Virus record (IMG/VR): IMGVR_UViG_2645727775_000019
Span: 1-37,692 of that record
Strand: one strand, 5' to 3'
DNA length: 37,692 nucleotides
Source of the DNA: a virus
Lineage: Duplodnaviria; Heunggongvirae; Uroviricota; Caudoviricetes
The notes under the pieces were generated by a model that saw only the letters and a program-made list of their open reading frames with translations, had not been told where the DNA came from and searched no databases. Below, piece by piece: positions 22,565 to 26,432 of the stretch. The position numbers were made by a program, and so were the translations under genes. Every line of letters begins with the position of its first letter. Position 1 is the stretch's first letter.

Positions 22565-22868
22565 TTTTCACCCCTGTCAGTCGTTCCCAGAAGTAAGTCA
22601 GCGCAACTGAACCCATTGCACCGCTGATCCCTGCTGTGGCGAGAATCATGTAAATGCTAAATCCGCTTTCGATACTTATCAGGCCACCAATAACACCGGT
22701 AAAACCCGATACCACTATCTGAGCCAGAGCATTAATCCAGCTCCATGTTGCTTTGCTCTGCTTCACATCAATCAGGTAACGGACAAGCCCGCCCCAGCAC
22801 GCGAAGATCAGCAGAACGAGCCAGGACATCCCGGCAATGCTCTCTTTTTCGTGCATATGAATAGCCAT
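22551..22868 (-). CDS. Holin (non-lambda-S type) with possible dual-start motif
   Basis: 105 aa from MAIHMHEK; three hydrophobic segments; immediately upstream of endolysin. Confidence 0.7.
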   Translation of the reverse strand: MAIHMHEKESIAGMSWLVLLIFACWGGLVRYLIDVKQSKATWSWINALAQIVVSGFTGVIGGLISIESGFSIYMILATAGISGAMGSVALTYFWERLTGVKNAKP

Positions 22869-22897: not shown

Positions 22898-23395
22898 CTA
22901 AATGATAGGGAACAGACTCACGGGGTAATTTAACGACAAAGCACGGAGTTGAAGATCCCCACAAGCCTGGAATAAAAAAGCCAGCGACAGGCTGGCAATG
23001 TGAGGGTAACGCAAAGTGCTTAGAAACAAAAAAAGGCCGCCATCGGCGACCTTCGAGGTATCTAGCGTGCTGGATACTTTCAGCTTCGCCTTCAATTCAG
23101 CGTTGATTTCTTTCAGGCGATCAACATCGTTTTTAAGTTTTTCAATGTCTTGCCCTTTATTATCAAGGTCGCGCTGAAGACCTTTAATAATTTCTGTTTG
23201 GGCCGCCTGTACTTCTCGTGTCGTCTGGAGAGACTTATCAATATCATCAACTTGGTTAATCAAGCGTGTACCGAAAAAGCCTACAACTAACATAGTTATC
23301 CCAACCATAAAGTTGAGAACCCAGACTTTTGTTCCGGAAGCAGTGTTTGGAGTTTCGTCGATAAAGTGCACCTTATGCCAGTTAAAGTTACCCAA
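22898..23395 (-). CDS. Hypothetical membrane-anchored coiled-coil protein (cargo gene Y)
   Basis: TM segment VWVLNFMVGITMLVVGFFGT then heptad-like coiled coil; ORF-track start is TTG; 3' portion reads through the terminator hairpins so the true extent is uncertain. Confidence 0.45.
   Translation of the reverse strand: MGNFNWHKVHFIDETPNTASGTKVWVLNFMVGITMLVVGFFGTRLINQVDDIDKSLQTTREVQAAQTEIIKGLQRDLDNKGQDIEKLKNDVDRLKEINAELKAKLKVSSTLDTSKVADGGLFLFLSTLRYPHIASLSLAFLFQACGDLQLRALSLNYPVSLFPII
22971..23051 (-). terminator. Two tandem intrinsic terminator-like hairpins upstream of the holin
   Basis: Minus strand: GGTCGCCGATGGCGGCC then TTTTTTTG, and GCCAGCCTGTCGCTGGC then TTTTTTATT. Confidence 0.6.
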
Positions 23396-23482
23396 CGTCT
23401 GCGCAGATCGTTAGATTCGGCAACATTGTAACTGGATAAGGAATAGAAAACCTTGGAATTTTAAGAAGAAACTGATTGATCG

Positions 23483-23572
23483 ATTATTTAACGAGCGAAC
23501 ACATCCATACACCCCAGACGGGTACTACGACAAAGGCCATGAAATAAGTAACTTTTGCTTGAATGTTTTGCA
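23483..23572 (-). CDS. Candidate 29-aa hydrophobic peptide
   Basis: ATG preceded by AAGGAAG; MQNIQAKVTYFMAFVVVPVWGVWMCSLVK; in AT-rich leader upstream of gene Y, downstream of a TTGATG-17-TAATAT promoter-like site. Confidence 0.3.
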
Positions 23573-23759
23573 TTTCGCTTCCTTAGCAGTCCGATAAGTA
23601 CTGTCTGCTCATCCAACCTAACGAATGTAGATCAGAATGACAAGTCTTTCGCGCTAATTTCAATTTGATATCTGTTCGTAAACATGATGGCGCGAAATAT
23701 TACGCATGAAGTGCTTCTACATCAACATAAAAGTTACTTTTTTTGTGTTCACAGCATGT

Positions 23760-23788
23760 AAAGTAAAAGCCCCGCACGATGGCGAGGC
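23760..23788 (-). terminator. Intrinsic terminator-like hairpin downstream of cargo gene X
   Basis: Minus strand GCCTCGCCATCGTGCGGGGC followed by TTTTACTTT. Confidence 0.5.
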
Positions 23789-23854
23789 TGTTAATTCTTT
23801 GTCGACCAACAAAGCTATGGCGACGATATCAGATTTACATGAAATATAAGCGTT

Positions 23855-24520
23855 TCAGTTCGGTTTTGCAAGACTTACGTGCGAACTTGTCGCCTTTTGT
23901 TGTGAACGTGATCGCGTTACTGAGATAAGCGCACCGCTATCGAGTCGCATAAAGCAGCTACGCATTGCCAACCAGTGAGGCAGGTATGTCTCTGTCCAGG
24001 TGGATTTCGCCACGCCAACCAGTTCCGCCAGCTTCTGGTATTCGTAGGCATCTTTCCCGACCAACCCTGCTTTGACATCCTGCGCTGCCAGCCATATCAG
24101 CTTCTTCAGGCGCTCCATGGTCTTGCCTGCCACCCTCTTCGCGCCGAGATACCCCCTGAATTCAGACCACGCCCACTGGGTGATCGCCACCTGGTATTCA
24201 AAGCTGATGTTTTCACTGTAACTCCACAGCAACCACGCTTTCTGATGTTCTTCGAGAGACAGAACCGCGCGGCGCCATGAAGATGTTGAGAACTCAACCT
24301 GGCTGACCAGTGCAATGGATGAACCTTTTGCGTACGACTGCTTACCGGAAATCGGCGGATTATCCAGCGTAATCATCTTGCCCGTTACCTCATCCAGAAT
24401 GCGCGGCTTCTTTCGTTTATATGTACCAGTATCAAATTGTGCATGCTCCAGCCAGGCTTCAAGCTGTTCAACAGTCATACCAGGGTTAAAAAAATATGGC
24501 TGCTGCTTTTCGCCCTGCAT
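23855..24520 (-). CDS. Hypothetical protein (cargo gene X, 221 aa)
   Basis: Start at MQGEKQQPYFF with GGAGG site directly after the tR'-like terminator; the first 23 codons of the ORF-track version are the terminator hairpin itself; no family recognised by eye. Confidence 0.55.
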   Translation of the reverse strand: MQGEKQQPYFFNPGMTVEQLEAWLEHAQFDTGTYKRKKPRILDEVTGKMITLDNPPISGKQSYAKGSSIALVSQVEFSTSSWRRAVLSLEEHQKAWLLWSYSENISFEYQVAITQWAWSEFRGYLGAKRVAGKTMERLKKLIWLAAQDVKAGLVGKDAYEYQKLAELVGVAKSTWTETYLPHWLAMRSCFMRLDSGALISVTRSRSQQKATSSHVSLAKPN

Positions 24521-24531
24521 TATTGACCTCC

Positions 24532-24560
24532 AGAAAAGCAAAAACCCCGCCGAAGCGAGG
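24532..24560 (-). terminator. tR'-like intrinsic terminator just downstream of Q
   Basis: Minus strand CCTCGC-TTCG-GCGGGG hairpin followed by TTTTTGCTTTTCT. Confidence 0.65.
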
Positions 24561-24670
24561 TTTGTTATGATTTCGTTAACGGCAGACATACAAAGCCCAT
24601 CGTTAGGAGAATCCTAACCATATTTTTTGAAAAATGCAAGCATCATGTCGCCATCTTCGGCGAAAATCAT

Positions 24671-25423
24671 TTATCTTGTCACTTTTCTCAATTGTGTCTC
24701 TGCATATGCTTCTTCCTGCCAGCACTTTGTAACCAGTTTATCAATAACATCTGCATATCCTTTGTACCACTGATAATCCGTCAGGTCCGGTACCAGCTTC
24801 TGGACATGATGCCGCGCCAGTGTGGTTGGTAAACGGCTAAACCGGTTTCCATTGCAACGCCCACAAATCTTATAAACAGGCGTGCCATGAAGCCGGGTCC
24901 TTTTTTCATCCAGGACAATACCTTTACCCTTACACCCTCTGCACGCTGTGCTGACTTCTCCCTTACCATGACAATGCTGACATAGTTCCTTCACCCACTC
25001 CTCCTTGATAACAGATTCACCGCTTCTGGAGTGTTTCACCACTTCGCGCAATACATTATGAAATCCAGTACCTGCACAATGCTCACAGCGAGCCTTACTT
25101 GCCGCAGACCTGGAATAATCAGCAAAGGCAAAATTCACAAGGTAAGGGATGATCTGTAACCGGGTTTCTTCACTCAATTTGTTCAATGTCGGGTTATCCA
25201 GTGCCATCGCGTAATTGAGCAGACCTTCAATCGCAAATTGAGGATCCTGAACACCAACTTTTGCCAGGAATAAGGCAAACCCAAGCGGTGCTTTCGACTG
25301 CACCATCCCCTGCGCAGCCATCACATCCGTAATCGTTAAACCACCTGAGCCTGTCGCCGGTGCGTCATCGCTCAATTTTGGAGATTTTGGGGAGTAATAT
25401 TTTGGTAAGGCTTCAAGGTTCAT
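24671..25423 (-). CDS. Late-gene antiterminator Q (lambda-Q family, QuuQ-like)
   Basis: YYSPKSPKLSDDAPATG...TDVMAAQGM, FAFADYSRSAA, Cys-rich zinc-binding region and C-terminal ...RKVTR parallel lambda Q as recalled; ATG with GGAG site, 250 aa. Confidence 0.8.
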   Translation of the reverse strand: MNLEALPKYYSPKSPKLSDDAPATGSGGLTITDVMAAQGMVQSKAPLGFALFLAKVGVQDPQFAIEGLLNYAMALDNPTLNKLSEETRLQIIPYLVNFAFADYSRSAASKARCEHCAGTGFHNVLREVVKHSRSGESVIKEEWVKELCQHCHGKGEVSTACRGCKGKGIVLDEKRTRLHGTPVYKICGRCNGNRFSRLPTTLARHHVQKLVPDLTDYQWYKGYADVIDKLVTKCWQEEAYAETQLRKVTR

Positions 25424-25436
25424 GCTCGTTCTCCAC

Positions 25437-26432
25437 TTACGCCAATACGCCAATTGCCAGCGCACGATCGATAAAACGAAATATCAGCTCCAGCTGGGAG
25501 CCATACTTCTCTTCAAATGCCACGGTATCCGCATGCAGCTCGTCGTGATGCTTTCTGCACAAAGGCAACACAAAGAGGTCATGCGCTTTTGTACCCATTC
25601 CCCCCTGACCGTGACCTATCAGGTGGTGGGGATCATCAGCGGGCTTTCCACAACATGCACACGGCTGTGTCTTAACCCAGCGCGTGTACTTTTCATTAAC
25701 CCAGCGGCGACGTTTTGGGCGTAACATAAAAGACTCCGGCGACTCCGGATCCACTTTCAGCGCCAGCACCTTTTTCGCTTTATCTTGGATGATGCTGGTG
25801 GCAGGAACCGAAGGCACAAGGTCACTTTCCCGGGTGACAGACGGCACAACAGGTTTCGGTAATCTCAGCGCCTTACGGGCTGCGCTTTCAGGTAAGGCAT
25901 CCGCCAGGTCATTACGAATCAGCCACCAGCACAGTTCCGGCATTGTCACGGCATGGTTATCATCAAAACCGAGATCCCGACGGACTACAGACAACACCCA
26001 GCGGGCACAGTTATCCGTTGCCATTGATTCCAGCCGTTCCGTGAACTGATCGCGCAGCTGGTTATCGCAGTGCCAGCACAGACGGATTGCGCCCGGAGCG
26101 TGTCGCATTGTTGTCATGTTCTCGCTGTGCCAGTCGGAATGAAGCCACTGGCAGCCTTTTTCACGAAGTAACCAGCTTTCAAGACATTCCACGCCACCAG
26201 CACGACGGATCACTGCCTCATTGCGGAACACGGCCCGAACGGCAGGATCATCCGCCAGCGGTTGTGATGCCGCGGGAACGGCACCACTGGCGAAAGATGA
26301 ATAACGTTCCGGCTCAGGCTCCAGCAGGACACGCCCCTGCATAAACAAGGGCATCAGCTCTGAACCTGGCCTGAACAATACGATCCCCATACGCGGGGCA
26401 ATTTCAGGGGTCAGTAGTGCTCTCACGGTCAC
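25437..26432 (-). CDS. DUF968-family protein (YdfU-like) with C-terminal Cys/His HNH-like motif
   Basis: 331 aa; C-terminal CACCGKPADDPHHL...CRKHHDELH; located upstream of Q as ydfU is upstream of quuQ in Qin-type prophages. Confidence 0.65.
   Translation of the reverse strand: MTVRALLTPEIAPRMGIVLFRPGSELMPLFMQGRVLLEPEPERYSSFASGAVPAASQPLADDPAVRAVFRNEAVIRRAGGVECLESWLLREKGCQWLHSDWHSENMTTMRHAPGAIRLCWHCDNQLRDQFTERLESMATDNCARWVLSVVRRDLGFDDNHAVTMPELCWWLIRNDLADALPESAARKALRLPKPVVPSVTRESDLVPSVPATSIIQDKAKKVLALKVDPESPESFMLRPKRRRWVNEKYTRWVKTQPCACCGKPADDPHHLIGHGQGGMGTKAHDLFVLPLCRKHHDELHADTVAFEEKYGSQLELIFRFIDRALAIGVLA

Follow-up and report, generated by a model that had tools for sequence, protein, structure and literature searches.

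Introduction

Intrinsic termination frees the RNA in or just past a run of uridines, and a UUCG tetraloop with an immediate U-tract is the classic signature of an intrinsic terminator. Hairpins at the 3' ends of mRNAs also stabilise transcripts. In phages, cassettes called morons carry a terminator of their own and are inserted between conserved modules.

In certain bacterial genes the terminator lies within the reading frame itself. An internal rho-independent terminator in brfA of Bacillus subtilis gives rise to a non-stop mRNA and to an SsrA-tagged product that is degraded (PMC6881298), and ArfA is analogous to BrfA in being made from a non-stop mRNA under the control of trans-translation (PMC6881298, PMC8012679). 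The element inside the genes for these two proteins is either a rho-independent terminator or an RNase III hairpin (PMC6881298, PMC8012679). Translation strongly represses terminators that lie late within the coding sequence or only a few bp past its stop codon (Li et al., PMC4824070). In the Gifsy-1 prophage, the locus antQ-isrK-orf45-anrP-isrJ includes IsrJ, a 74-nt terminated RNA downstream of anrP (PMC2330248, PMC4825925).

Here we analyse a prophage-type late leader in which an open reading frame, Y, continues through two predicted intrinsic terminators, T1 and T2, before it reaches a stop codon. We know of no description of a phage gene with a stop-less reading frame that runs through its own terminator. 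The explanation we favour, to which we give about an even chance of being right as a whole, is that T1 is an ancestral terminator in front of which the stop codon of Y was lost, that it acts as one of several barriers in series, and that the RNAs ending there are non-stop.

Results

Layout of the late leader

The window, by which we mean the whole stretch of 37,692 nt analysed here (a Caudoviricetes record of IMG/VR), carries on its minus strand a DUF968 gene, two successive Q-type genes belonging to PF03589 and PF06323, ORF Y and a LydA-type holin gene, followed 3' of the holin on the same strand by a GH24 endolysin, Rz/Rz1, an HNH gene and the small terminase subunit (Table 1). Between Q and the holin the order is Q (PF06323), a putative pR' with an IsrJ-like tR', a small ORF that we call X, then Y, T1, T2 and the holin.

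Table 1 Features of the late leader and their positions in the window.
Feature	Position	Strand	Remarks
Q-type antiterminator (PF03589)	24671-25465	(-)	
Antiterminator Q gene (PF06323)	23855..24589	(-)	E = 3.4e-80; phrog_304; directly upstream of the IsrJ-like unit
IsrJ-like 75-nt unit	23766..23839	(-)	Rfam RF01393, full length, 64.9 bits vs gathering score 37; ends in hairpin 23789-23768
Small ORF X	23484..23573	(-)	29 aa, MQNIQAKVTYFMAFVVVPVWGVWMCSLVK; good Shine-Dalgarno; first cassette gene, previously unannotated
Translated conserved part of Y	23055..23371	(-)	Short N-terminus, transmembrane helix, ~70-residue coiled coil, linker VSSTLDTSK
T1, predicted intrinsic terminator	23024..23054	(-)	10-bp stem 23054-23045/23041-23032, GAU loop, U7 23034-23028, then GUUU
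Read-through tail of ORF Y, non-conserved	22898..23031	(-)	~44 codons + TAG; spans T1 U-tract, T2 and holin leader
T2, predicted intrinsic terminator	22971..22996	(-)	6-bp stem, 5-nt loop, U6, then AUUCC
Holin, LydA-type, PF16083	22551..22868	(-)	First lysis-cassette gene; ATG 22868

A preliminary description of this DNA, drawn from its letters alone, had noted two hairpins with U-runs (T7 and T6) inside an open frame of 165 codons that ends some 30 nt short of the holin start, and our folds and terminator scan bear this out. ORF Y spans 165 codons from 23395 to 22898, is open across both hairpins, and its TAG (22900-22898) stands 29 nt from the holin ATG. In the DNA, T1 reads GAAGGTCGCC-GAT-GGCGGCCTTT (23054-23032) with G-C at six of its ten pairs, followed by T7 and then GTTTCT; the corresponding RNA is GAAGGUCGCC-GAU-GGCGGCCUUU and then U7, and the codons, in frame within ORF Y, specify K-V-A-D-G-G-L-F-L-F. 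T2 reads GCCAGC-CTGTC-GCTGGC (22996-22980; CUGUC loop in the RNA), followed by T6 at 22979-22974. The predicted folding energies are -18.7 kcal/mol for T1 (z = -4.0) and -10.9 kcal/mol for T2 (z = -4.2), and none of 200 shuffles folded as well in either case. Both combine a hairpin with a U-run on the gene strand, as an intrinsic terminator should (10 bp and U7 in T1, 6 bp and U6 in T2). Scanning of a 10-kb region returned 22 terminator-like sites, compared with 10.5 +/- 3.4 in shuffled sequence, and T1 has the highest number of pairs among them.

Both terminators are co-oriented with the late genes and lie between pR' and the first lysis gene, as late-leader terminators in general do, T1 about 800 nt and T2 about 860 nt downstream of the Q stop. 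The preliminary description had taken them for a tR'-like arrangement placed unusually far from Q. This does not hold, since the canonical unit is found directly past Q: a promoter-like site (23871-23843) immediately follows the PF06323 gene, and the IsrJ-like unit starts just after its -10. An IsrJ-like unit also lies directly 3' of Q in L006, L007 and L010. It is probably the short pR'-tR' transcript of the adjacent Q, that is, the actual tR', and by analogy its position suggests a counterpart of the lambda 6S-type pR'-tR' transcript and not an independent sRNA gene. Because this unit occupies the promoter-proximal tR' position, T1 and T2 are extra downstream terminators and not a displaced tR'. 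The insulation of the lysis genes by T1 and T2, which the preliminary description had also put forward, is plausible from their placement. The late leader is clarified in two respects, namely that an Rfam IsrJ stands where a lambda 6S-like pR'-tR' transcript would be expected and that the second leader terminator, T2, is widespread.

Other features of the region were noted alongside. The tandem Q-family genes (PF03589 and PF06323) are separated by a terminator at 24563-24542, which lies within the first codons of the longest ORF of the second Q gene, and no Rfam match to isrK was found in the window. The holin gene has two in-frame ATGs four codons apart (MAIHMHEK...; 22854-22868 on the minus strand), of which PGAP takes the second; the pair may represent a dual-start holin/antiholin arrangement. 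A weak conserved hairpin is present in the holin leader at 22963-22942.

Conservation and covariation of the T1 hairpin

We compared 44 copies of the locus, comprising the window, the RefSeq copy L001 and 42 fetched loci (3 from genomes and 39 from IMG/VR); 29 of the sequences are distinct, and identities range from 44 to 99 %. A terminator-like hairpin lies at the identical codon of Y in every copy. Its stem occurs in six types (GGTCGCC/GGCGGCC; GCCACC/GGTGGC with a UUCG loop; the same stem with UAAG; ACCACC/GGTGGT; GGCTGCC/GGCAGC; and GGCTGCCC/GGGCGGC), all of them with U5-U7 and with folding energies of -11.6 to -18.5 kcal/mol. In a model-based alignment 95.7 % of the pair cells hold standard pairs, compared with 35-63 % when the partner is slid, and compensatory double changes at three of the eight pairs demonstrate covariation. 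Pairing is in fact undercounted at 95.7 % because the E. coli/Klebsiella stem is misregistered: in the MAFFT and covariance-model alignments the nine "unpaired" cells are this stem standing one column off register, and direct extraction of the stem gives ten pairs in its own register. The residues encoded by T1 vary along with the stem (VADGG, PPSGG, PPKGG, AASGQ and AAPRGG), and since they track the stem type, selection acts on the RNA structure.

This bears on whether the hairpins are terminators at all. They might reflect a constraint on the encoded protein, or be an element of RNA stability or processing, for instance a protector of the 3' end after cleavage; termination at this locus is predicted from sequence, and hairpins at mRNA 3' ends have a stabilising role too. 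However, the residues change with the stem while pairing and U5-U7 persist, the UUCG tetraloops and immediate U-tracts are those of intrinsic terminators, and the homologous hairpin of the outgroup locus L047 has the normal position behind a stop codon. We thus regard it as very unlikely that T1 and T2 are something other than terminators.

Absence of a stop codon upstream of T1

For the open frame the preliminary description had left a choice: either the true end of Y lies further upstream, owing to a frameshift, a sequencing error or pseudogenisation, or the terminators are intragenic. It had proposed that homologous prophages be searched for an in-frame stop before 23051. None of the 44 copies has an in-frame stop there or anywhere else before T1, and none was found in any linker-carrying protein match either; in all 44 the first in-frame stop lies beyond the hairpin, 14-171 nt (median 64.5) past the last G-C pair. 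With the hairpin at the same codon throughout, it is the intragenic alternative that stands.

Several further observations show that the frame is genuine. RefSeq holds Y as WP_032172870, a protein of 157 aa with a GTG start at 23371. Three complete E. coli genomes match the locus DNA at 99.8-100 % identity and one IMG/VR contig encodes Y at 99 % protein identity, which together exclude a sequencing error. Pairwise differences in the Y core are distributed as 3041/2374/6878 over codon positions 1/2/3, and the same count is 120/98/777 for GIPLTLN, the linker of seven codons directly before the hairpin; Y codons are under purifying selection right up to the hairpin. Furthermore, a protein search returned 16 relatives in Klebsiella, Salmonella, Enterobacter, Kosakonia and Serratia, all 16 of which are conserved through the hairpin, up to "...LDTSKVADGGLF", with unrelated tails of unequal length thereafter. 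Three distant Y members, P0027, P0028 and P0030, end directly after the coiled coil and do not have the linker, and they are what a proponent of a true end before T1, brought about by frameshift, sequencing error or decay, could point to. Against the identical or nearly identical DNA in three complete genomes, the strong third-position bias in the linker and the lack of an earlier stop in all 44 copies, we consider that such an artefact or pseudogene has next to no probability and reject it.

We also rejected slippage or frameshifting onto a conserved stop in an alternative frame: the window does have a +1-frame TAA, but the type-B hairpin loci that were inspected by eye in the alternative frames, L003 among them, are without a nearby stop.

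The read-through tail and the origin of the stop-less state

The preliminary description had asked about conservation of a hydrophobic C-terminal tail across the hairpins. The outcome is split: the frame stays open through T1 in all copies, whereas the hydrophobic tail that follows shows no conservation at all. The tails of Y are unrelated between lineages, the distances to the stop fit random sequence, and even the close relatives L006 and L007 differ, with TAA in one and AAA in the other a few codons past the U-run. Given that no stop precedes T1, the chance of an open tail of 43 codons is (61/64)^43, or about 0.13, which is not improbable; the feature that is not due to chance is the clade-wide missing stop before T1. 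We read the last 43 predicted codons of Y as accidental read-through; in the explanation we favour they form a functionless and lineage-specific tail. For annotation this means that about 44 of the 157-165 predicted codons come from reading through terminators and into the adjacent holin leader, and that they should not be taken for a hydrophobic C-terminal domain.

Outgroups have the ordinary layout. In L047 the coding sequence ends ...AAA TGA acat and is followed by AAGGTCGCTTAGGCGGCC-T6-GTTTTT, so that the hairpin stands 4 nt past the stop; by sequence comparison this hairpin is clearly the homologue of T1. In L046 a TAA is followed by a terminator 11 nt on. Because the outgroups show a stop and then a terminator, T1 is ancestral and the stop-less state derived. 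T1 belongs to the X-Y cassette as its own intrinsic terminator, and the enterobacterial clade of Y has kept the stop-less state throughout. The independent stop-less lineages are few, corresponding to about six stem types.

The loss of the stop need not have had any consequence. It could have happened once, with Y made only from Q-antiterminated late RNA and with the tail and the overlap selectively irrelevant. Tail lengths that look geometric or random and differ even among close relatives, together with the ordinary layout in outgroups, agree with this, as do the terminator's own constraints, which disfavour new stops: only a few single changes within the G+C-rich stem or the U-tract would create a stop, and the stop-less state could be kept neutrally. 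Nevertheless, a single base change at the first codon of the hairpin, AAG to TAG, would restore a stop and is absent from the roughly 29 distinct sequences, and polymerase leaking through tR' at a basal level would still produce RNAs that end at T1. This neutral account largely overlaps with the explanation we favour, from which it differs only in denying a role for non-stop rescue, and in that narrower form we find it somewhat unlikely.

A discrete X-Y-T1 cassette and a separate holin leader module

ORF X is kept in every Y locus, including the outgroups L046 and L047, and probably encodes a small membrane peptide inherited together with Y. The cassette extends from about 23575 to about 23025; among loci with different Q types, homology runs from about 23540 to about 23029 (furthest in L022), ending just past the U-run of T1. 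It sits 3' of at least two Q families and of genes in the Q position that match neither, and 5' of varied lysis cassettes, and DLP12-like prophages that are homologous in other respects do not have it. Lysis-type genes follow Y in all 42 fetched loci, and most of these have a recognisable Q about 500-650 nt upstream of Y. The full cassette is present in 3 of 5,426 complete E. coli genomes, and a tblastn search of 50,697 phage records found no Y, its matches covering only the part made up of the tail and the holin leader.

Between X and Y there is a conserved TAnAAT box resembling a -10 element (23430-23425), with no convincing -35 and no match at this site in a sigma-70 scan. It hints that Y might be transcribed in lysogens too, in which case a non-stop design would look wasteful. 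Past this box lies a covarying palindrome (23394-23430 on the minus strand), AACGATCTGCGCAGACGTT in the window and GACATGCGGCCGCACGTC in other loci, a candidate operator or 5'-UTR hairpin.

On the other side of the cassette, tRNA genes lie downstream of Y in L009 (4618-4691), L017 (5116-5269), L022 (4355-4426, directly past T1) and L031 (4450-4521); Stx phages carry tRNAs at the same late-leader position. A match to STnc100 in L017 and one to isrI in L042 also lie downstream of Y. Identification of Y itself with the sRNA IsrI was considered and rejected: the window has no Rfam match to it, and the isrI match of L042 is outside Y.

T2 has a different distribution from T1 and, judged by homology, belongs to the holin leader module and not to Y. 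The holin module, T2 included, is common to 805 E. coli genomes that have no Y, with homology beginning at window position 23014 or 22998. In two DLP12-like prophages (L044 and L045) the order is Q (PF06323), a promoter region, a first terminator, a spacer of about 90 nt, a T2 homologue and the holin, with no Y; the T2 homologue there is GCCAGC-TACAT-GCTGGC-T6-ATTCC. In an informal comparison, unrelated stems precede an identical TTTTTTATTC tail in L002, L006 and L010, and L044 has another loop. T2 is thus a second leader terminator widespread among some 800 DLP12-like E. coli prophages. The second terminator follows the stop of Y in most lineages, and T2 falls within the Y ORF here only because the chance stop of Y comes 80 nt past it.

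The Y protein and its start

The Y family has no significant match in Pfam, NCBIfam or PHROG, where only weak coiled-coil similarities appeared, such as one to an Rz-like spanin (E = 3.9e-4). Y shows neither homology with ArfA or BrfA nor a match to any ribosome-rescue family. The family is tiny, an exhaustive profile search yielding 28 cluster representatives. An AlphaFold model of Y consists of one long helix, residues 20-108, with pLDDT of 70-80, and the tail has pLDDT below 50. A role in lysis or in the cell envelope would be a guess based on its position.

Candidate starts are GTG 23371 (PGAP), TTG 23395 (the first start of the ORF) and a conserved in-frame ATC at 23362. The canonical candidates, TTG 23395 and GTG 23371, are not conserved among loci. 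An AAGG at 23374-23371 is invariant, and 7-9 nt on, all loci including the outgroups have an in-frame ATA (ATC in the window, 23362-23360); from this pattern Y may initiate at a non-AUG codon.

Discussion

The explanation we favour can be set out as follows. In the enterobacterial clade the stop before T1 is missing, leaving a frame that runs through hairpin and U-tract to a chance stop. Polymerase that has not been modified by Q would be blocked before the lysis genes by tR', T1 and T2 in series, whereas Q-modified polymerase would pass all three. Because the point of RNA release always precedes the first in-frame stop, RNAs ended at T1, and in the window those ended at T2 as well, would be non-stop. 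The Y product made from them would be directed to trans-translation, with SsrA tagging and degradation, and only antiterminated late transcripts would give rise to Y with a normal stop. T1 is perhaps leaky when Y is translated, because a trailing ribosome represses terminators so placed (PMC4824070).

The same repression underlies a rival reading. A ribosome on Y would mask the 5' arm of the hairpin, coupling transcription of the lysis genes to translation of Y; termination would then be limited to transcripts that are untranslated or uncoupled, and RNAs lacking a stop would be rare. In favour of this proposal, every copy has its stop beyond the hairpin, T1 and T2 both fall within the frame of Y in the window, and translation is known to repress terminators late in an ORF (PMC4824070). 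However, Q-modified polymerase should have no need of such gating, the second terminator is mostly past the stop of Y, which would make the gating lineage-specific, and the start of Y is perhaps a weak non-AUG codon, which argues against dense ribosome traffic. We consider translational gating unlikely.

The explanation we favour, a lost stop in front of an ancestral terminator, also has a stronger form in which Y is a natural non-stop gene that works as an AND gate: without Q its product is tagged and destroyed, and with Q it gains a stop and accumulates. This form seems to us improbable. If true, it would confine Y, a membrane coiled-coil protein beside the holin, post-transcriptionally to the late phase, and would be the first phage case of the ArfA/BrfA principle.

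The terminators themselves are ordinary; a family-wide reading frame that runs stop-less through its own covarying terminator is uncommon, with precedent in unrelated genes. The locus offers a natural, evolutionarily retained example of such a frame in E. coli prophages and a candidate substrate of trans-translation. It is also a candidate case in which antitermination decides whether an ORF gets a stop codon.

Among known systems, the lambda-type late leader is similar in having several terminators in series between Q, with its promoter-proximal unit, and the holin; in contrast to tR', however, T1 and T2 are not promoter-proximal, and T1 lies inside a translated gene. Gifsy-1 resembles the window in the order of Q (PF03589), a terminator, a PF06323 gene and IsrJ. 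There, however, IsrJ is treated as a virulence-associated sRNA and AnrP as anti-repressor-like (PMC4825925, PMC2330248). These papers describe no X-Y cassette, and isrK has no Rfam counterpart in the window. X-Y-T1 is like a phage moron in being a discrete cassette with variable Q types and lysis cassettes around it, but its terminator is inside an ORF and the evidence for a promoter consists of the -10-like box. As in the BrfA and ArfA genes, the terminator of Y lies inside the ORF and upstream of the annotated stop, in all 44 copies, and the annotated C-terminal codons are in the gene but probably not in the terminated mRNA. Unlike these ribosome-rescue factors, to which it is unrelated, Y is a coiled-coil membrane protein encoded in the late leader of a phage; its SsrA tagging is a prediction, and antitermination could conditionally supply its stop.
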